IMG/VR virus record: IMGVR_UViG_3300045988_158233
Reading direction: 5' to 3' (one strand)
DNA length: 64,000 nt
Source: a virus
Taxonomy: Duplodnaviria > Heunggongvirae > Uroviricota > Caudoviricetes
Under the pieces are notes generated by a model. The model was not told where the DNA came from and ran no database searches. It saw nothing but the letters and a program-made list of their open reading frames with translations. The position numbers were made by a program, and so were the translations under genes. The stretch's first letter is position 1. Each line of letters starts with the position of its first letter. Shown one piece after another: positions 2 to 40,411 of this stretch.

Positions 2-2902
2 GCCAGTTCGGCGGCGTCATCGGCATCATCTGCGTCTGCTTCAAAAGATGAGGCGACCAGACAGGCGTCAGCAGCGAAGGGCAGCGCCACGACGGCATCC
101 ACGAAAGCAACAGAGGCGGCAGGCAGTGCGACGGCAGCATCTCAGAGCAAAACTGCTGCTGAATCCGCTGCGACCCGTGCGGAAGCTGCTGCTGATCGTG
201 CTGAAGAGATTGCCGGTGCAGTTGCGATGGAAGACGCAAGCCTTACAACTAAAGGTGTTGTGAAACTTAGCAGTGCTGTCGATAGCACCAGTGAATCGCT
301 GGCCGCAACGCCAAAAGCAGTTAAGGCCGCATATGATAATGCTGAAAAAAGACTACAGAAGGATCAGAATGGTGCTGATATCCCAGACAAGGGCCGCTTC
401 CTGAGTAACATTAATGTTTACAGCAAAGGTGAAGTGGATAAGAAAAAGGGGATGCGAAAATACACTTTCTCTGCTCCTGCAAATGCAGTAAGCGGTAAGT
501 GGTATCCTGTAGTCTTTCGCCGAACTGGTGGTGGCACAGATGAATTAGCCTCACGAGTGGTTATCACCACTTATTCCTCAGCTGGCGGATACGCTATGAA
601 TAATTGTGAGTTTAATGGTTTTGTTATGCCGGGCGGTTGGTCTGATCGCGGTTCATATGCTGTTGGTTTTTTCTCAATATATTCAACCGTTGAACGATCT
701 ATACACTCGATTATCGCAAGCGTGAAAGATGATGATTTGTGTAGTGTATTTTACGTTGAGACAAGAGCATTCCCTATCCAGATTTTTGCTGAGGAAGGAT
801 TAAATGTGATTGTTCCAACGGCTGATTATGCAGTTGGTCAAACCACTTATAAGTGGGGGGCCACTGATCCTTTATCAGAAAGTACGAATGCACAGATAAT
901 TTTGGACTTTAAAAATGGACGAGGTTATTACTGTTCACATCCATTTATTTCAAGTCTTTCAGGAAATGCTGCTACAGCAACGAAATTACAGACGGCAAGA
1001 TCTATCGGTGGAGTTGGTTTCGACGGTTCTGCCAATATTAATCTTCCAGGTGTAAACACTACGGGTAATCAGAACACCACTGGTAATGCCGCAACTGCTA
1101 CAAAACTACAGACGGCAAGAACTATCGGCGGCGTGAGCTTTGATGGTACTGCAAATATTAATTTGCCAGGTGTTAATACGACTGGTAATCAGAATACAAC
1201 AGGTAATGCGGCTACTGCTACGAAGTTGCAGACTGCGCGTACTATTAATGGGGTGTCGTTTGACGGTTCGGCAAATATTTCCTTGTCACCAGCAAATATA
1301 GGTTGCCCAGCATCTCCTACTGGTTGGTTAACTACAGGAAGTAATGGCGGAGCAATAACAACAGCCCAGTTAGTGACGTTATTGCAAAATAATGGAGCCT
1401 TTAACACAAAGGCATGGATTGCTCGATGTGCGTGGGCCTATGCCAATAGCGCAACCATACCAAATAGTGAAACTGGTTGTGGCGTTATTCCATTGGCAGG
1501 AGCTGTTATAGAAGTATTTAATAACGGTAGTAGTTCAAATAATTATACGATCCGCATAACAACGGCCACAACGACAAGTGTTTCCGGTGCTCTCACTAAT
1601 GCGGAGTTTATCTATGTATTTAATGGCACAGATTATTCTCCAGGATGGCGAAGAGTATATAACACGAAAAACAAACCAACAGCCTCTGATGTCGGTGCAT
1701 TACCTCTTACCGGTGGTACATTATCTGGAGGTTTGACATCTTCTGGCGAGATCATTTCAAAATATGCAAATGGTTTCCGCATTGCTTACGGTAGCTTTGG
1801 GTTCTTTATCCGTAATGATGGATCGAACACATATTTCATGCTAACAGCATCAGGAGACACATTAGGTTCATGGAACGGTTTGCGACCTATTACAATTAAT
1901 AATACCAGCGGTGCTGTATCAATTGGTAATGGACTAAATGTGACTGGTGGCGTAAATGGTAGTTTGAACGGTAATGCTTCAACAGCTACGAAGTTGCAAA
2001 CAGCGAGAAACATCAATGGTGTTAAGTTTGATGGCTCAGGCGATATCAACATTAATACATTGGTATCTCGTGGCCGAGTTACGGCGTTAAGCGGTTCTAC
2101 TCAAGGTACTGCTGGCATTCAAATGTACGAGGCGTACAACAATAGCTACCCGACCACGTATGGCAACGTATTGCACATGAAAGGTGCGAGTGCTGCTGGT
2201 GAGGGCGAGTTGCTTATTGGCTGGAGTGGTACGAGCGGTGCACATGCGCCGGTTTTCATTCGCTCCAGAAGAGATACCACTGATGCGGCATGGTCAGCGT
2301 GGGCGCAGGTATATACCGCTAAGGATTCAATCCCTGGTGTGAATACAACCGGTAATCAGAATACTACTGGTAATGCCGCAACAGCCACAAAATTGCAGAC
2401 AGCAAGGAAAATTGCTGGTGTGGCGTTTGATGGCTCTGCCGATATAACTTTGACTGCGGCTAACCTTAATGCTTACACGAAAACAGAGGTAACAAACCTT
2501 CTAAGTTCCTATGTGAAGAGCAGTGCTCTTCCAAGCATGACTGTGCGAACTTCCTCTGTTTCAGGTGGGGATATGGGCATGAGCTTGTCCGCATTCATTA
2601 GCCACCTAAAATCAAATGGGGCGTTTAGCAAAAGTTATTGGATTGGCTTTGGCGATGCTATGGGATTCAATGCTGGCAGTATCAACAATATAACGGGATT
2701 TGGTGCTGTAGAATTAGCAGAATCTATAATCGAAGTTTTTAATCTACCTAACGGTGATTATACAATTCGTTTAACAACGTCACATAAAGCTGACTACGGT
2801 GGAGTTACAAACGCAATCCTCGTTTATCACTACCGTAGTAATAGAAGTCCGTCAGGTCAATGGCTGAAATTTGCAGGTACTGTTGGGGCAACAAGTAACT
2901 GA
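2..2902 (+). CDS. Tail fibre protein, 5'-partial (frame open from the window edge)
   Basis: Track ORF 227..2902 stays open in the same frame back to position 2 with an Ala/Ser/Thr-rich region; at least five copies of a ~30-aa repeat GNAATATKLQTAR-I-GV-FDG-ANINLPGVNTTGNQNTT typical of phage tail-fibre repeats; Gly/Ser/Thr/Asn-rich composition. Confidence 0.8.
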   Translation, partial: ASSAASSASSASASKDEATRQASAAKGSATTASTKATEAAGSATAASQSKTAAESAATRAEAAADRAEEIAGAVAMEDASLTTKGVVKLSSAVDSTSESLAATPKAVKAAYDNAEKRLQKDQNGADIPDKGRFLSNINVYSKGEVDKKKGMRKYTFSAPANAVSGKWYPVVFRRTGGGTDELASRVVITTYSSAGGYAMNNCEFNGFVMPGGWSDRGSYAVGFFSIYSTVERSIHSIIASVKDDDLCSVFYVETRAFPIQIFAEEGLNVIVPTADYAVGQTTYKWGATDPLSESTNAQIILDFKNGRGYYCSHPFISSLSGNAATATKLQTARSIGGVGFDGSANINLPGVNTTGNQNTTGNAATATKLQTARTIGGVSFDGTANINLPGVNTTGNQNTTGNAATATKLQTARTINGVSFDGSANISLSPANIGCPASPTGWLTTGSNGGAITTAQLVTLLQNNGAFNTKAWIARCAWAYANSATIPNSETGCGVIPLAGAVIEVFNNGSSSNNYTIRITTATTTSVSGALTNAEFIYVFNGTDYSPGWRRVYNTKNKPTASDVGALPLTGGTLSGGLTSSGEIISKYANGFRIAYGSFGFFIRNDGSNTYFMLTASGDTLGSWNGLRPITINNTSGAVSIGNGLNVTGGVNGSLNGNASTATKLQTARNINGVKFDGSGDININTLVSRGRVTALSGSTQGTAGIQMYEAYNNSYPTTYGNVLHMKGASAAGEGELLIGWSGTSGAHAPVFIRSRRDTTDAAWSAWAQVYTAKDSIPGVNTTGNQNTTGNAATATKLQTARKIAGVAFDGSADITLTAANLNAYTKTEVTNLLSSYVKSSALPSMTVRTSSVSGGDMGMSLSAFISHLKSNGAFSKSYWIGFGDAMGFNAGSINNITGFGAVELAESIIEVFNLPNGDYTIRLTTSHKADYGGVTNAILVYHYRSNRSPSGQWLKFAGTVGATSN

Positions 2903-3092
2903 TTTAGACATTATTTATATGGCTGTGAGGTTTAAAATGCGATCTCACAGCCGCAATCATAGGGATATATTAGTGAGTTACTAGATACGAATTTGAACAG
3001 CCGTTAAACGGCATATGCATAGATAGGTAAGTATATACCTATAATTGAAAGGAGAAGTGTGATATAAATCCGCCATCCCGATTTGACTTTTC

Positions 3093-3428
3093 ATGGAGGA
3101 AAATATGTCGAACGAGATGGCGGGCGTTACAACAGAGCAAGTTGAGCGTATTGCCGCGATCGTTGCTCGGGAGGTTGTTGGTAAATTAGGTAAAGAGCTA
3201 CGTGAAGAAATTGGCCAGGAGGTCAATGATCAGCTGAAAACCTACTTTGGTGATATGACCCCGGCGCAACATAGTATTCAACACTCCAATCTGGACAAAC
3301 TCCTTAACCGGTTAGATTCCATCTCCAGTGGGTTCTTTGGCGGCATTGTTTCTAAAATAACGTCGTTCATTATTACTGCACTGCTTTTGGGGTTAGCCGC
3401 GTATGGCGTAAAAAATGGACTGCAATAA
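3093..3428 (+). CDS. Small membrane protein with one C-terminal TM helix; possible holin (by position only)
   Basis: 111-aa ORF; C-terminal hydrophobic segment ITSFIITALLLGLAAYGV; directly precedes and overlaps the next gene ahead of the spanin pair. Confidence 0.3.
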   Translation: MEENMSNEMAGVTTEQVERIAAIVAREVVGKLGKELREEIGQEVNDQLKTYFGDMTPAQHSIQHSNLDKLLNRLDSISSGFFGGIVSKITSFIITALLLGLAAYGVKNGLQ

Positions 3429-5143: not shown

Positions 5144-5880
5144 ATAGCGCATATTCAAAAGATCTAAGCGAGTTTCCTCATAAAGGGGAGACTCGTGTTG
5201 TTCGTTTTGGCTTTCTTATCAATGAAGCCTCCCTCTATAAAATCTCAGAAATTGAAATCATTGAACCAGAAGATGACATTTGCCTGTATGTCTCTATGGA
5301 ACGTGTAGGTGCGCGCGACCAAGGCGACCTGAGCGAATTCATCTTAGATCGAGCGGATGAAGATGCCCCTGAAGAAGAGATTATCAAAGAGGTGCTCCAG
5401 TCCGGGCTTCTGGACGAAAACAAAAATACGATCGCTGGTAGGATAGCTCTGCGTGAATATAGTTTTGTTGAAGACGGTAATGAGATCGAATGTTACCAGG
5501 TAGCCGGTGTCGAAACTGTCAGAGAGCGTCGTCAGCGAGGATTGTGTCACCGTACCTATCTCTTTCTTCTTCATTGGTATGAGCATTTAGTCTGCGACGA
5601 TACACAAACCATTCCTGGTGCTAAGATCTGGGCAGGGCCTCTCATGCGAACCGGCGATGTGCGTATATACAATGCCAAAACAGAAACGTTCGAGGATGTG
5701 TTAGGTGAGTACGGGATGGGGAAAGAAACCGGATTTTTGCCGTGGAACAGAGGATTGTTGCTTGATGCAGAGTTAAGCTCTTGGCTCCCAAACAAAGTGC
5801 AAGTTAACGTTCAGAAATTTATCGTACTTATCATCTCCCGCAAAACAAGAACTCCAGTAGGTTTATACCTAAAAGATTAA
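5128..5880 (+). CDS. Hypothetical protein
   Basis: 250-aa ORF, acidic; followed by a hairpin terminator. Confidence 0.4.
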   Translation: MAPTLDSAYSKDLSEFPHKGETRVVRFGFLINEASLYKISEIEIIEPEDDICLYVSMERVGARDQGDLSEFILDRADEDAPEEEIIKEVLQSGLLDENKNTIAGRIALREYSFVEDGNEIECYQVAGVETVRERRQRGLCHRTYLFLLHWYEHLVCDDTQTIPGAKIWAGPLMRTGDVRIYNAKTETFEDVLGEYGMGKETGFLPWNRGLLLDAELSSWLPNKVQVNVQKFIVLIISRKTRTPVGLYLKD

Positions 5881-5885
5881 AAATC

Positions 5886-5908
5886 AGGCGACTTTGGTCG
5901 CCTTTTTG
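5886..5908 (+). terminator. Rho-independent terminator
   Basis: aggcgac-tttg-gtcgcct hairpin followed by a T-run. Confidence 0.6.
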
Positions 5909-6055
5909 TTAACAGCCATTGATTCTCGCCTAAAAATTCTAAGGCAGCACCTACCATTTAACCTTTACACCACAGCCGTAGGCATTTAGGCTATATCACA
6001 TATAAGAAAACAAGTTGTTTCAGACGATAATTATATACGCAAAGGGAACTCTCCA

Positions 6056-6724
6056 ATGACCAAGATCTTTGTGGTTGGCGGCACAAAGGGCGGGCCTGGC
6101 AAATCCACCGTTGCCCAGCAAATTGCCGTTTGCCTGAAAGTCAAAAAGAAGAAGAAGGTTTATATCACCGATATAGATATTCAGCGCACGACAACGAGCT
6201 GGTGTGAAGACCGTCGACAGAACGAAGATCTTGAGCTGATTCCTTTTGCATACGTTCAAGATGACATCATTAAGCACCTAAAATCGCTTCAGGGTAGAGC
6301 TGAGTATGTAGTGGTAGATGCTGGTGGCTTTGACTCCGAAATTCAGCGACAAGCGATGCTGATGGCCGACGTTATCATTATCCCGCTGCGTCCTAAGCGT
6401 CGTGATTTGAAATCTTTACGTGACATCGATCCTATTATCGACAATGTTCGCAATGTAAACGACAAAGTGAAAGTCCGCGCGGTCATGAACCAATGCCCGG
6501 CTTTGCCATCACAAGTGTCTCGCATTCTAGCGGCTAAAGAGATTGTCGAGACGTTTGGCATCGAGTCTGCGCCAGTCAATCTATATAACCGCAACGTCTA
6601 TGATGATGCGGAAGAGTCTGGTCGTTCTATCTTTGAAATGACCGGTAGCGAGCGCGACAAAAAGGCGGAAGCCGAGTTTGAAGAATTTGTAGATTATCTG
6701 TTGAGTCTGGAGGAAGAAGAATAA
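6056..6724 (+). CDS. parA: ParA-family partition ATPase
   Basis: Deviant Walker A VVGGTKGGPGKST at the N-terminus; ~220 aa, the size of small ParA proteins; followed immediately by a small DNA-binding partner. Confidence 0.8.
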   Translation: MTKIFVVGGTKGGPGKSTVAQQIAVCLKVKKKKKVYITDIDIQRTTTSWCEDRRQNEDLELIPFAYVQDDIIKHLKSLQGRAEYVVVDAGGFDSEIQRQAMLMADVIIIPLRPKRRDLKSLRDIDPIIDNVRNVNDKVKVRAVMNQCPALPSQVSRILAAKEIVETFGIESAPVNLYNRNVYDDAEESGRSIFEMTGSERDKKAEAEFEEFVDYLLSLEEEE

Positions 6725-7083
6725 TGTCCATGAAAATGGGTGACCTAGCAAAGCGCAAAGAGCCTGATGCACCGGCTAAGAACACAACTCCTTTGCGCCA
6801 ACCAATCAGACCACAGGGACGCCCGACTCGTGGCAAAGAGAAAATTAAAAGCCGCACGATGTCACTGGAAGACGAATACTTCGAACTGCTGGAGATGATG
6901 AAGTTCATCCCTCGCTTCGAGAAGTTCACCCGTTCTGACGTGATTCGCGCAGCCATTTTCCATCTGGCAGAGAAGTCACCGCAGGAAATCGAGGACATCG
7001 TGAAACTTAACGAGGCGATCACTGCTGCCGATGTCACGATGCGTACCGATGAAATTAAACGCGAGTTAATGAAGAAAGGTTGA
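6724..7083 (+). CDS. Small partition partner protein (ParG/ParB-like, probable ribbon-helix-helix)
   Basis: 119-aa ORF start-overlapping the parA stop (ATGA); basic N-terminal tail then SLEDEYFELLEMM...RSDVIRAAIFHLAE, resembling RHH/CopG-type folds. Confidence 0.5.
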   Translation: MSMKMGDLAKRKEPDAPAKNTTPLRQPIRPQGRPTRGKEKIKSRTMSLEDEYFELLEMMKFIPRFEKFTRSDVIRAAIFHLAEKSPQEIEDIVKLNEAITAADVTMRTDEIKRELMKKG

Positions 7084-7093
7084 TATAAATCTC

Positions 7094-7122
7094 TAAGGCT
7101 GGTCTGCATTGGACAGCCTTAG
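7094..7122. terminator. Hairpin between convergent genes (probable bidirectional terminator)
   Basis: aaggctg...cagcctt inverted repeat between the + gene ending 7083 and the - gene ending 7144. Confidence 0.45.
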
Positions 7123-7143
7123 AAATATTTCGTTCTATGAAAG

Positions 7144-8217
7144 CTATTCGTAGTTAAGCTCACCGAACAGACTGAACATCAAGTCACCATCCAAAATTTC
7201 AAAGGGCAACTCGACATACTCATCCTTATGTCTCGGAATTGCGTTGCCGTCGTTAGGGGCATTCTTGGTATAACCTTTTACATGTTTACCGTTTTCTTTT
7301 GTATACGGCAGCACGACAATTCGACCGTGATTTTTTGAAATGATAGTTCCTTCTTTCCAGAGCGTATTGCCTCTTGAGGTGGTTTCGCTTTCGCTAGCAA
7401 CTTTAACACTCCAACCTACCTGATTTTTGTCCTCAAACCAGAAAACAAAGTTGCCAACAACCAGTACCTTTTGCCCATTCCTGAGAGCTTCATCCAGCAT
7501 TCTTTTTACGCTGGCGAGTTGCAGTAACCGGTTAGCACGCGGCAGAAGCATTGAGCGAATAGTCGCTTTTGTTTTTCCCCAATGTGCAGCGCCTGATAAA
7601 CCAAAACCTCTGGCTATGCGTTCTTGGTAGCAGATCTTCGCTGTCTTAGCTTTGTTGTTATATGAACATTCCCAAGTGTTAGGAGCAACGAGTTGAAGTG
7701 AAACTTGGAATTTGGGAAGAAAAACAAAATGTAAGTAAGGCATCTCGCTTAGCACGTCAAAAAGGGGTTGACGCAAAGTTTCGTAATCTGGGTTAATTAT
7801 TAACTCATTTAATGTCACTCGCGGATCGTTGGCGTGTGCCTTAATTGCTTCGTTGAGCATTATATGCTCTTCATCCATGAGACGTGATTTGGCTTTGAGT
7901 GCTTTGTCAACTTTCAAACGCAATGACTTCTTTTGAAACATAGATAGAGGAAGTTTTTCAATGTCAAAGCTCACGTTTTTATTCAGCTCTAATGCCGCTT
8001 TTCTTGCTTCAGGATAGTTATCGTAGTCGTCATCAAAAGCGTGGTTTGGCATACCACGATCAACATATCGCCGATACCAAGCAAGGGTTCCATCATTACG
8101 GAGTTTCAGACAGAACATCGACCATTTATTCCGTTCATATTTAGGCTGAGGCCAAAAAGCCAGTTCGGGAAGGCCATATCCTGGAAGTCTATTCATGCGC
8201 ATGGTGACAATATCCAC
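7144..8217 (-). CDS. Hypothetical protein (oppositely oriented moron-like gene)
   Basis: 357-aa ORF on the minus strand, convergent with the partition operon; no motif recognised. Confidence 0.5.
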   Translation of the reverse strand: MDIVTMRMNRLPGYGLPELAFWPQPKYERNKWSMFCLKLRNDGTLAWYRRYVDRGMPNHAFDDDYDNYPEARKAALELNKNVSFDIEKLPLSMFQKKSLRLKVDKALKAKSRLMDEEHIMLNEAIKAHANDPRVTLNELIINPDYETLRQPLFDVLSEMPYLHFVFLPKFQVSLQLVAPNTWECSYNNKAKTAKICYQERIARGFGLSGAAHWGKTKATIRSMLLPRANRLLQLASVKRMLDEALRNGQKVLVVGNFVFWFEDKNQVGWSVKVASESETTSRGNTLWKEGTIISKNHGRIVVLPYTKENGKHVKGYTKNAPNDGNAIPRHKDEYVELPFEILDGDLMFSLFGELNYE

Positions 8218-37223: not shown

Positions 37224-37559
37224 ATGAAGGCCATCCCATTCGCGCTGTTGTTCCTTTCTTCGATCGTTGTGGCCGACACCACTGTTTATCAGTGTGAAAT
37301 GTCTGTAGCCGACGTTAAGAATGGCGCTCTTACCGACGTCATAAAAGCACCATATGGCGCGATGGTCGTAGACAGCGGCGACCAGTTCTATGTTGTGCGA
37401 GACGATCGAGTATTGTCATCCCCATATCTCACAAACCGTAATGGCAAATTAACCGGCGTCGGAGAAGACCACTTCGTATACAACAAATACAAGGGCTTCT
37501 ATGGCGTTCACGCTTCTCAGCAAAGCTACCTTTTCGATGACTGCAAGGAGGTTGGATAA
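37224..37559 (+). CDS. Secreted protein, function unknown
   Basis: Signal peptide MKAIPFALLFLSSIVVA; 111 aa. Confidence 0.45.
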   Translation: MKAIPFALLFLSSIVVADTTVYQCEMSVADVKNGALTDVIKAPYGAMVVDSGDQFYVVRDDRVLSSPYLTNRNGKLTGVGEDHFVYNKYKGFYGVHASQQSYLFDDCKEVG

Positions 37560-37771
37560 TGGCATTAACACTGGCAGGTCTGGAAATCGAGAAAACAAGC
37601 GGATACTGGCGTGCTAAGGGTTTCAAGCAGCCTGGCATTCTTGAGCGTCTGGAACGTGAAGATGGGTATATCGTCCACCAGCGGCGTGAATGGCGTATGT
37701 ACGATCCAGAAACAGGAAAACTGACTACAAAAGCCGGAACACTTTGGGGTCTGTTGAAGAAAATACACTAA
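37559..37771 (+). CDS. Hypothetical small protein
   Basis: 70-aa ORF, start-overlapping the previous stop. Confidence 0.35.
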   Translation: MALTLAGLEIEKTSGYWRAKGFKQPGILERLEREDGYIVHQRREWRMYDPETGKLTTKAGTLWGLLKKIH

Positions 37772-37817
37772 ATGCAAACTGACTGCGGCACGTTCCGCAG
37801 TCATATTTCATAGTCGT

Positions 37818-38351
37818 CACCGCTGACAGCATACACAATCAACTGCCGCTGATAGCATATCGAGAGTCTATCTCACCGCTCACAGCATACTTTACTCGAT
37901 TTTTTACCGCTGACAGCATACTTAAGACATTGCATGAATAATGTGTACCGGTATGGGTATAACCAGAACAAAATTACCGCTGGCAGCATACGAAGGTCTG
38001 ATATATGCCATTAATTACCGCTGATAGCATATCCAAACAAAAATTCCTCAATAAAACACCGCTGACAGCATACGTTCTATCAGGGAGCAGCAGGCAATAA
38101 ATACCTTTCACTACAAGTAATCAGCGCAATGGGAATAGAATGTTAGTGAGCGCAAACCTATATGGAATGCACTCTTCGAGGTTAGTAACCACTGGGGAGG
38201 TATAAAAGAGCATTGAGTGGTGATAGATGATTTACCGCTCACAGCATACGTTTATCTCACTATACCGCTGGTAGCATATCTTTAACCGTTCACAGCATAC
38301 TTTTCAGAAAAATAGCCGCTGATAGCATACATTTCACCGCTGACAGCATAT
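37818..38351. repeat. Iteron array downstream of repA (about 12 copies of a 17-bp repeat, consensus yACCGCTGAyAGCATAy)
   Basis: Copies at about 37818, 37844, 37874, 37905, 37975, 38026, 38057, 38233, 38263, 38284, 38314, 38335; irregular spacing; all in the same orientation. Confidence 0.8.
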
Positions 38352-39445
38352 CAAAGCAGTTTGAGACTATTGGAAAGGATCTCAATCATCTTGATATTTT
38401 CAGGCGTCAAATTCTGCGAAAGTTCAGTTATCTTGTTGATAATGTTCTGTTTAGCATCAATTTCCCCGGCTTTCTCATCTGGTTTTTTGGGTTCGATGTC
38501 TTCAGGTTTTGGCGGTGCGACTTTAAGTTTTGGATTGCGGCTGTGAATCTGGATATAGATCGACCGCCCTCGCTTAATCTCGCTGTATTCGAGATAGCCC
38601 AAATCTTGGAGAGCTTTTAAGCCGTTACGTATAGTCTGATTCTGCGAGCTTACATTCCTGCTACTCAAATTGAGTCGCGCACGCAATCGAGCAAGCGATA
38701 CCGGCGCAGGCTTGGTTGGAAGACTTTCGATGAAGGTGTACAGAGCCTGTGCTGTTTCTTTGCGTGGTAGCTTATTGATAACCTTTAACTGCAAAAGAAC
38801 CTTATGGTCAAAGCGATATAGTTCGGCCAGCTTCGGTTCTGCATAGAACACCACCGTATCTTTCTGCTCGTTGTAGTCCACGCTATTGATGAGGTGCACC
38901 ATCAGAAGCGAGATCTTGTTAGAGCCGTCGACGTTCTTTTCTTCATACGTTCTCTGGAAAGACAGAGTTGTACGCATGATCTTCAAAAGACTGTTTGTAA
39001 GCCGGTCGCGGAGTGTTTTGCGGATCTGTGACGATGGATAGCCACAAAACTTCGCAAATTTCGTGATGCTTAACTCGACACGACCGTTAGGTTCGCCGTA
39101 TTCTGCCAGCGAACGCACAACGCCCACCCACGTTTTGAAATCATGATCCATGTCGAGACGAGGACCGGTTATCTTGATATCGGAATAGCCTTCAGAACGG
39201 GCTACTTCGAGCTGAACAAGCTCCTTTGAAGCATCGATCTCATTTGGCTTGTTACGCTTGCTGTATTTTGTCCCCTTGAGCGTGGGCACGAACAATCCCA
39301 GCCGCATCAACGCAATTGGTTGGACTGTATTGTTGCTATTAGGGACAAGTTCCCCTGTGTACAATTCAAGGGAACCTTCTTCAAAGTTGTCGAGATTATC
39401 TTCTACTTCTTTGTTATTTTTACCTTTTTTATTTTTTGTGGACAT
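38351..39445 (-). CDS. repA: Iteron-type plasmid replication initiator (RepA-like)
   Basis: Minus-strand ORF flanked on both sides by iteron arrays; start trimmed to the Met (MSTKNKKGK...) that does not overlap the upstream iterons; basic N-terminus, ~365 aa. Confidence 0.65.
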   Translation of the reverse strand: MSTKNKKGKNNKEVEDNLDNFEEGSLELYTGELVPNSNNTVQPIALMRLGLFVPTLKGTKYSKRNKPNEIDASKELVQLEVARSEGYSDIKITGPRLDMDHDFKTWVGVVRSLAEYGEPNGRVELSITKFAKFCGYPSSQIRKTLRDRLTNSLLKIMRTTLSFQRTYEEKNVDGSNKISLLMVHLINSVDYNEQKDTVVFYAEPKLAELYRFDHKVLLQLKVINKLPRKETAQALYTFIESLPTKPAPVSLARLRARLNLSSRNVSSQNQTIRNGLKALQDLGYLEYSEIKRGRSIYIQIHSRNPKLKVAPPKPEDIEPKKPDEKAGEIDAKQNIINKITELSQNLTPENIKMIEILSNSLKLL

Positions 39446-39464
39446 GTGGACACCTTTGTCATTC

Positions 39465-39567
39465 AACCGCTGACAGCATACTTGATTTGCCGCTGACAGA
39501 ATACCAAAAACAGTTGGCAGCATACGGTGAACCGCTGACAGACTATCAATTACCGCTGACAGCATAC
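39465..39567. repeat. Iteron array upstream of repA (about 5 copies; probable origin/autoregulatory region)
   Basis: Copies of the same repeat at about 39465, 39488, 39515 (partial), 39529, 39551. Confidence 0.75.
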
Positions 39568-39766
39568 ATGAACATGGCTTCAGACCAGTCGTGGCGCGGC
39601 TTACAGCGATCGGGGATCTTATTTGATCTATACAAGGATCTATCTATGGATCTCTTTATTGGGATCTATCCTGTGGATATGTGAATAATTAAAACAGGCA
39701 TTTACTACCTTCGGCGCACCTGGTGGGTTATCGTTGCCTCGGCTAACAATCACAGAAAAATGACAT

Positions 39767-40411
39767 ATGGATCTAAAACGCACGCGCTGGGTTCGTCGTC
39801 TTGAAGACGGCTCCTACACTATCGAATCAAATTCCAACCTGAATAAGCAGAAGTTGCTTTGTGACATCTGCGGTATAGCGGCGAAGTGCCCGATCTACGA
39901 AACCAGAATTAAACTTGATAAGGCTGGTGTGAATTTTCATTTAAACAGTTGCATCAGGTACGTTCCATTACTCGCATTTCGTAAACCGATCATCGGATTG
40001 GATGCTCCCTACTTCAACACACTCCGTTCAGGTGTGACGTGGCGAGATCGTTTATCACCAGACAAGCTGATTTGCCTCGTATCCGCAGACACAGGGAAAA
40101 TCATCCGTTTTGGGAAAGTAGACAAGGTTTACTCAGGCCCAGTAGACGAAATGTTGCGGAAACACAGCCGGTTTAATCATCTCTGTATGGGTGGTGAGAA
40201 AATCGAGAAGGTAGAAGAAGTGATCCGCAAATCCTACGGACACTTTCTGACCAAAGATAGCCTGCTCACCGCAATCTACATCAGACATGTAAAACGTGAG
40301 TTCGACCTCGAATACCACAGCGAAGAAGAGCTTAACCTTGTTGACCCACGTCCAAAAGCTGGCGTCATAAGCATAAACGCAGCGCGTAAAAAGCCCACTG
40401 ACGCGCTGTAA
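39767..40411 (+). CDS. Hypothetical protein
   Basis: 214-aa ORF. Confidence 0.45.
   Translation: MDLKRTRWVRRLEDGSYTIESNSNLNKQKLLCDICGIAAKCPIYETRIKLDKAGVNFHLNSCIRYVPLLAFRKPIIGLDAPYFNTLRSGVTWRDRLSPDKLICLVSADTGKIIRFGKVDKVYSGPVDEMLRKHSRFNHLCMGGEKIEKVEEVIRKSYGHFLTKDSLLTAIYIRHVKREFDLEYHSEEELNLVDPRPKAGVISINAARKKPTDAL

Follow-up and report, generated by a model that had tools for sequence, protein, structure and literature searches.

A replicon of the iteron type occupies positions 37780–39690 of IMG/VR record IMGVR_UViG_3300045988_158233 (Caudoviricetes), analysed here as a single stretch of 64,000 nucleotides (the window). It is very probably the plasmid-prophage replicon of an SSU5-like Escherichia coli phage-plasmid, and a member of the same family as P1 oriR-repA-incA and RepFIB. 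The minus-strand gene for its initiator, RepA, lies between two arrays of a short direct repeat (the iteron), with 12 copies downstream of the gene and five upstream. Because the upstream block (39465–39690) holds DnaA boxes, a GATC cluster and phased iterons and is colinear with P1 oriR, it is most likely the origin; the 12 downstream iterons (37818–38351) are, we infer, an incA-like locus for copy control and incompatibility.

Initiator, origin module and iteron arrays

The first-pass annotation of this DNA had called the replicon P1-style, and the label holds as one of homology: RepA is related to P1 RepA, and the region beyond the upstream iterons can be aligned with P1 oriR base for base. 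Its identity to the P1/P7 protein is 43.5% over 278 residues for RepA (tblastn, E = 2e-64), which is 45–48% identical to RepA of SSU5, Cyrano and Cronobacter phage JK004, and ~85% identical to that of Klebsiella SSU5-like phage-plasmids. The RepFIB initiators, its nearest relatives outside phage-plasmids, are ~50% identical and occur in at least 5000 enterobacterial plasmids. The 364-residue protein contains a Pfam Rep3_N domain [the WH1 domain of iteron initiators; 37.5 bits vs a cut-off of 22.4] and matches PHROG 775 (E = 5e-133); a search of NCBIfam with RepA gave no match. The label ‘replication helicase’, attached to P1-type RepA in PHROG 775 and in several RefSeq phage records, is a misnomer for a winged-helix origin-binding initiator. 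In an alignment of seven RepA sequences, conservation extends from around residue 30 to around residue 310. The remaining ~55 residues (~310–364; 38354–38520) form a C-terminal tail ending in a leucine-rich motif, LTPENIKMIEILSNSLKLL; the tail pattern is common to the RepFIB and SSU5 initiators and is missing from P1 and Cronobacter RepA.

Window positions 39699–39585 align with P1 oriR at 77% identity over 118 bp (local blastn, E = 2e-16). In the annotation of P1 (AF234172), oriR begins with tandem DnaA boxes, followed by five Dam sites, a 39-bp spacer and five RepA-binding iterons (incC) that contain the repA promoter; then come repA and, from its stop codon on, nine incA iterons. The window has the same part order, from two DnaA boxes, GATC heptamers and a spacer of ~40 bp through repA to the array at the stop codon (Table 1). 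Placed side by side, the window sequence TTATTCACATATCCACAGGATAGATCCC...GATCGCTGTAAGCCGCGCCACGACTGG and the P1 sequence TTATCCACATTATCCACTGGATAGATCC...GATCGTTGCAGGCCGCGCCACGTCTGG are visibly alike. The GATC sites at 39608–39666 form the densest such cluster of the whole window (window mean 4.3 GATC per kb), and we propose this stretch as the region of DNA unwinding and SeqA sequestration. In a multiple alignment the DnaA/GATC/spacer module is 66% identical to P1 and the iteron block 41%. Classical IncFIB replicons and the relatives in Klebsiella, SSU5 and Cronobacter also have the DnaA/GATC module upstream of their iterons. On these alignments, the host-factor part of the origin is kept across the family and the initiator-specific part (iterons and RepA) has diverged. 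The interval originally marked out for the replicon, 37818–39567, does take in both arrays and repA; the origin runs on to ~39690, so that spacer, GATC cluster and DnaA boxes fall outside it.

On the repA strand the iteron consensus is (G/A)TATGCTGTCAGCGG(T/C), 16–17 bp long, with 16 conserved positions in an information profile over all 17 copies. The whole window was searched with the 14-bp core CCGCTGACAGCATA (plus strand) at up to three mismatches, which returned 24 matches where 4.6 +/- 2.1 are expected; each of 100 shuffles gave fewer than 24. Seventeen of the matches lie inside the two arrays, every one on the plus strand in a single orientation, and the remaining seven are scattered outside, each with three mismatches, at the level of chance. 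Sixteen of the 17 array copies have two mismatches or fewer (the exception, at 39511, has three). The 2.3 kb around the arrays were also read directly, and a repeat finder reported a single dominant family of 15 copies. The core search thus confirms the 12 + 5 copies of a 17-bp repeat noted at first pass, in number, coordinates and common orientation. An inverted iteron-like sequence, TCGCTGGCAGAATA, is present within repA (39099–39112, minus strand, three mismatches) and was also listed as one arm of a 15-nt inverted repeat whose other arm is the iteron at 37978; it was set aside, being at chance level for three-mismatch matches.

The two arrays differ in their spacing and surroundings. The upstream iterons follow one another at 23, 21, 21 and 21 bp, about two helical turns, and the downstream ones unevenly, at 26, 30, 31, 70, 41, 41, 176, 30, 21, 30 and 21 bp; the final downstream iteron ends at 38350, one base short of the repA stop codon (38351–38353). 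No DnaA box at up to one mismatch, no GATC cluster and no AT-rich stretch was found in the downstream region. The ~160-bp gap within the downstream array was considered as a functional element and dismissed, as it is unconserved in Klebsiella and varies neutrally within the lineage, and an Rfam scan of 37400–40000 at E ≤ 1 gave no match and no sign of a regulatory RNA in the gap or the leader. In FIB replicons the origin is associated with the upstream iterons; a resident replicon is displaced by the downstream block on its own, an effect read as handcuffing (PMC11983097). A division of the arrays into one for origin and autoregulation and one for copy control was suggested already at first pass; the proposed allocation of the former to the upstream array and of the latter to the downstream one agrees with that dissection and with the annotated P1 map.

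A mechanism can be proposed from the biology of P1 and RepFIB (AF234172 annotation, PMC11983097, textbook iteron-plasmid models). RepA monomers on the five phased upstream iterons, acting together with host DnaA on the tandem boxes, would open the GATC-rich stretch, where the host replisome would be loaded. Re-initiation would be limited or timed through the GATC cluster, by its Dam methylation and its sequestration by SeqA, and RepA bound to the upstream iterons would repress transcription of repA. Titration of RepA by the 12 downstream iterons, and their handcuffing with the origin iterons in cis or in trans, would result in a low copy number and in the incompatibility specificity. As the specificity of iterons and RepA is unlike that of the P1, SSU5/Cyrano and FIB replicons, the element is predicted to be compatible with them.

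Several results weigh against this interpretation. A sigma-70 consensus scan found no minus-strand repA promoter in 39446–39570, so autoregulation through the iterons is a step that we only infer; the sole promoter candidate is weak (TTGGTA-N18-AAGTAT at 39507–39478, a 7/12 match) and sits at the position of the P1 promoter, which is itself weak. Sequence searches of the PDB with RepA alone and with a seven-sequence profile matched no chain, RepE, pi and pPS10 included, and membership of RepA in the family at the level of the fold therefore follows from Pfam and P1 homology. The downstream array is unlike P1 incA in having 12 rather than nine copies, all direct and with a 160-bp split, and its quantitative behaviour may be different. 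Among the nine lineage sequences compared, the iteron cores tend to vary less, as expected, but with marginal significance: 2.9% of core sites are variable vs 6.3% in the inter-iteron spacers and 6.9% in the 160-bp gap (Fisher p = 0.06 vs spacers plus gap), and vs 7.1% at repA third codon positions (p = 0.03). In the same comparison 2.4% of sites vary in the host-factor module of the origin and 0.3–0.5% at first and second codon positions of repA.

Table 1. Features of the replicon and of the distant partition gene (window coordinates).
Feature	Position	Strand	Remarks
Small (222 residues) Walker-type ParA-like ATPase	6056..6724	+	31 kb from the replicon
Bidirectional-terminator-like hairpin	37780..37803		Outer edge of the replicon cassette
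Downstream array, 12 copies	37818–38351		Cores start at 37820, 37846, 37876, 37907, 37977, 38018, 38059, 38235, 38265, 38286, 38316, 38337 (+ strand)
Distal sub-array, 7 iterons	37818..38074	-	Spacing 26–70 bp; part of the proposed incA-like locus
Unique stretch of ~160 bp between the downstream sub-arrays	38075..38232		No DnaA box
repA-proximal sub-array, 5 iterons	38233..38351	-	Spacing 30, 21, 30, 21 bp; adjoins the repA stop codon, like the last incA iteron of P1
repA, 364-residue initiator	38351..39445	-	Rep3_N (WH1) domain; homologue of P1 and RepFIB RepA
Shine-Dalgarno sequence AAGGTG	39451..39456	-	Precedes the ATG at 39445 by 5 nt; conserved, like that ATG, in the Klebsiella lineage
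Upstream array, 5 copies	39465–39567		Cores start at 39467, 39490, 39511, 39532, 39553 (+ strand)
Five origin-proximal iterons, incC equivalent	39465..39567	-	Proposed site of RepA-driven opening and repA autorepression
GC-rich 40-bp spacer (GCCGCGCCACGACTGG...)	39568..39607		Agrees in sequence and length with its counterpart in P1 oriR, of 39 bp
Six GATC (Dam) sites in 59 bp	39608..39666	-	Part of AGATCC-type heptamer repeats, where GC is lower; P1 oriR has five homologous Dam sites
Two tandem DnaA boxes, TTATTCACA and ATATCCACA	39672..39688	-	Each 8/9 vs consensus; same place as the outer-edge boxes of P1 oriR

The repA start codon and other readings of the repeats

The minus-strand repA open reading frame has two candidate starts, at 39565 (404 residues) and at 39445 (364 residues). 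Judged from the sequence, the start at 39445 is the right one and the 404-residue RefSeq frame is an artefact. The first 40 codons of the longer frame (39446–39565, minus strand) are the iterons themselves, read as MLSAVID / SLSAVHR / MLPTVFG / ILSAANQ, with seven codons to each 21-bp unit. No relative of RepA (P1, SSU5, Cronobacter, FIB) has residues that align with this extension. Among nine lineage members, four of the five polymorphic sites in the extension fall at codon positions 1 or 2; in the body of repA the corresponding figure is three of 29 (Fisher p = 0.003). The start at 39445 had been preferred at first pass; it is favoured by the length of the N termini across the family, by the distribution of the polymorphisms and by the conservation of its Shine-Dalgarno sequence. 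Some depositors already use the short form, as a 1095-bp coding sequence in PhiR41_1 and in an Escherichia albertii plasmid, and several plasmid records start exactly at the short ATG. The RefSeq/PGAP ‘RepB family’ proteins of 404 residues (WP_001717293.1, WP_001348683.1) begin with the 40 translated-iteron residues, and the record of Klebsiella phage pJN2-26 has the same over-extended start. The start codon is also spanned by a tandem TGTCCACA-TGTCCACA motif (39437–39452, minus strand; GGTGTCCACATGTCCACAAAA), each unit of which resembles a DnaA box with two mismatches. P1 and Cronobacter phage JK004 have better DnaA boxes at the same spot between iterons and repA, unlike the window, where the motif may be vestigial or a weak second DnaA site.

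Translation of the upstream repeats, either as a 404-residue initiator or as long and short isoforms with an N-terminal domain of MLSAV-like heptads, is very improbable. Such isoforms of an initiator are known in other iteron plasmids, R6K pi for example, each iteron contains an in-frame ATG, and the extension is open in the E. coli and Klebsiella lineages alike. An open frame is, however, expected by chance: with a fixed core there is about one possible stop codon per seven-codon unit, which by our own calculation gives P(open) ~0.8. The codon-position pattern of the polymorphisms, the failure of every relative to align with the extension and the conserved Shine-Dalgarno sequence and ATG at the short start also speak against translation, and by analogy with P1, transcription would start within the array, downstream of the long ATG. 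The same extension bears on the only description found of this exact replicon, that of the near-identical plasmid pEc_K1G_A (PMC13463583), with which a P1-homologous origin upstream of repA is, by our alignments, in disagreement. There, four distal 21-bp repeats are named an ‘iteron-type oriV’, repB is annotated as 1215 bp and the plasmid is stated to be unrelated to P1 and P7; the downstream repeats would then be the origin, and the sequence before the 364-residue start the 5′ part of a 404-residue repB. The 404-residue form also stands in the RefSeq/PGAP annotation, and some iteron plasmids do have the origin downstream of rep. We nevertheless consider this arrangement unlikely. The description gave eight of the 12 downstream repeats and none of the five upstream: after conversion of coordinates its repeats are the cores at 37820–37907, 37977–38059 and 38337, so that it missed the four at 38235–38316 and all five upstream copies, the latter because they lie inside its 1215-bp coding sequence. 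The downstream region, unevenly spaced and without DnaA box, GATC cluster or AT-rich stretch, lacks what the upstream block has, namely DnaA boxes, a GATC cluster, an AT-rich stretch, regular phasing and an alignment with the mapped P1 oriR. In the dissected FIB replicons the downstream iterons serve control, not the origin (PMC11983097), and three of the four ‘oriV’ repeats are missing from PhiR41_1, a phage whose genome was deposited as complete, with E. coli K-12 MG1655 given as its host.

It is hard to see the repeats as att recombination sites or as a parS centromere instead of initiator-binding iterons, and we give this very little credence. Arrays of direct repeats can be centromeres for type Ib ParA systems, and the record of Klebsiella phage pJN2-26 labels as attL and attR two copies of this repeat that flank repA. 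These two, however, are just two of the 13 iteron copies in that record, and the element is kept as a circular plasmid in more than 120 records. The ParA gene lies 31 kb off. In just the arrangement of P1, whose record annotates the binding of RepA to its iterons, the arrays stand on either side of a Rep3-family initiator, and in Cyrano they have been exchanged along with repA, which implies that iteron and initiator specificity are coupled. The pJN2-26 sites themselves (MZ779062; ‘attR’ at 1378–1397 and ‘attL’ at 2648–2667, 20 bp each) are iteron copies, and their annotation is almost certainly an artefact of prophage-boundary software.

Lineage, cassette exchange and significance

The replicon region is 99% identical to that of phage PhiR41_1 (complete genome deposit, host MG1655), and positions 37760–38420 are found at full length in ~120 circular plasmids of ~100–115 kb at 97–99.8% identity. 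Over the same positions the reference of the type IncFIB(H89-PhagePlasmid), NC_023916.1 (pECOH89), is 97.9% identical and has the same 17 iterons; the element is, by sequence, this known replicon type. The K1G_A plasmid was typed IncFIB(H89-PhagePlasmid) by PlasmidFinder (PMC13463583) and has the same rep region, judging by its published repeat positions, and most SSU5-supergroup phage-plasmids are typed as IncFIB (PMC7969092; bioRxiv 10.1101/2025.09.12.675607). The rest of the window is 97.6–98.6% identical to phages CMS-2020a, Cyrano and PhiR41_1 and ~78% identical to SSU5. Around the replicon, a near-identical plasmid annotates genes for a tail fibre, a DnaB-like helicase, a ligase, DnaE, RecA and an exonuclease. 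The expectation at first pass that the element can be maintained as a plasmid is well founded, given its near-identity to PhiR41_1 and to more than 120 circular plasmids.

Apart from PhiR41_1, the iterons number 12 + 5 in every full-length lineage member counted, and ~120 plasmids match the array at full length. PhiR41_1 has a clean 87-bp deletion (37819–37905) between two identical iterons, which has removed the outermost three and left nine downstream; if P1 incA is a guide, this deletion could raise copy number. A larger change separates the window from Cyrano. Going down the window, the two are 96.5% identical from 42460 to 39579 and 98.6% identical from 37788 to 35500, with the identity falling off through the origin module. 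Between these flanks (37788 to ~39580) Cyrano (OV696614, 2883–4965) carries an SSU5-type RepA (48% identity) with SSU5-type iterons on both sides, and no window-type iterons were found in its cassette. The downstream iterons, repA and the upstream iterons thus behave as one exchangeable cassette, replaced by a swap and not by gradual divergence, as would be expected if iterons and initiator are a matched specificity pair. On the same sequence comparison, the replicon in Cyrano contradicts the remark in PMC13463583 that this phage lacks repB-oriV.

A more speculative proposal, which we regard as possible but doubtful, is that 37788 to ~39580 is a swappable ‘incompatibility cassette’, with recombination in the DnaA/GATC module and the terminator hairpin, and that the split 5 + 7 array, unusual in being all direct, tunes copy number. 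If so, near-identical phage-plasmids such as the window lineage and Cyrano could switch incompatibility specificity and co-reside, and deletions between iterons, like the 87 bp lost in PhiR41_1, would be copy-up variants that selection for gene dosage, or lytic propagation, could favour.

Among clinical Enterobacteriaceae SSU5-like phage-plasmids are frequent, and at times they carry resistance genes, CTX-M-15 on pECOH89 for example. The SSU5-like replicon serves typing, and the correct placement of the origin matters for the design of mini-replicons and curing cassettes and for predictions of incompatibility; by analogy with FIB, the downstream array should be the effective curing block. Two entries would be corrected by the present assignment: a systematic RefSeq start error that hides five iterons in the 404-residue coding sequence, and the published placement of oriV in the downstream array.

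Away from the replicon, the ‘parA pair’ that the first-pass annotation placed at 6056..7083 is upheld in its first member. Positions 6056–6724 do encode a Walker-type ParA; 6724–7083 is without a recognizable ParB or centromere-binding domain. The latter is a 119-residue open reading frame that overlaps the ParA stop codon, has no Pfam domain and matches PHROG 5111 (function unknown) alone. P1 parA, at 1197 bp (~398 residues), adjoins its replicon, and the window ParA, at 222 residues, is not part of a P1 ParAB (type Ia) system. No centromere-like repeats were found near parA (5700–7300); the search turned up just a terminator-like inverted repeat and some short matches of two copies each, as many as chance would give. 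In PMC13463583 a parA-like gene is followed by a ‘parD2-like antitoxin’, and parB is placed elsewhere.

Comparison with known replicons

Both P1 and the window element are plasmid prophages, and the phasing of P1 incC (22, 21, 21, 21 bp) is nearly that of the window (23, 21, 21, 21 bp). The iterons themselves, ATGTGTGCTGGAGGG in P1 and TATGCTGTCAGCGG in the window, are unrelated in practice, from which different incompatibility is predicted; iterons of the IncY type (GATGTGTGCTGGAGGGAAA) are not those of the window; Cronobacter phage JK004 does have P1-type iterons. Of the nine incA iterons of P1, three are direct and six inverted, in contrast to the uniformly direct downstream array of the window with its 5 + 7 split. 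The window also has six GATC sites where P1 has five, no strong DnaA box between iterons and repA, a RepA extended by the C-terminal tail and an SSU5-like phage backbone that differs from that of P1.

The general logic of DnaA boxes, AT-rich region, origin iterons, rep and handcuffing downstream iterons is likewise that of mini-F ori2/RepE/incC (RepFIA; cited in PMC11983097). RepE chains in the PDB have no detected sequence similarity to the window RepA, and the link to them is through the Rep3 family assignment only. In RepFIB (P307, F, pO157) the rep gene stands, as in the window, between upstream iterons linked to the origin and downstream iterons for control, with a DnaA box and five GATC sites upstream, and the initiator has the C-terminal tail motif in common with the window RepA. 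The RepFIB iterons (ATAAGCTGTAG-like) differ from those of the window, and the downstream ones are inverted relative to the upstream ones. FIB rep starts with CTG (PMC11983097), unlike the window repA with its ATG and good Shine-Dalgarno sequence, and RepFIB resides on conjugative F-like plasmids, not on a phage-plasmid.

The SSU5/Cyrano replicon occupies the same genomic slot as that of the window, between open reading frames for a 70-residue ‘Cra-like’ and a 214-residue ASCH-like protein. Architecture and DnaA/GATC module are shared; RepA is just 48% identical, and the iterons (CCACTGTAGAGAGT) occur downstream in both orientations, unlike the uniformly direct ones of the window. The origin module upstream of repA is present twice in tandem in SSU5 (780–1000 and 1155–1400) and in Cyrano (~2770–3000 and ~3150–3400), and once in the window. 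Each duplicated module comprises a DnaA box, GATC repeats, spacer and iterons, and the repA-proximal copy has partly degenerate GATC sites. Set against these systems, what is new here is the upstream P1-oriR-homologous origin, the corrected start codon, the full iteron inventory and the evidence for a cassette swap. The element is otherwise an ordinary, textbook iteron replicon of a well-known and well-populated kind, whose type is already in the typing databases.

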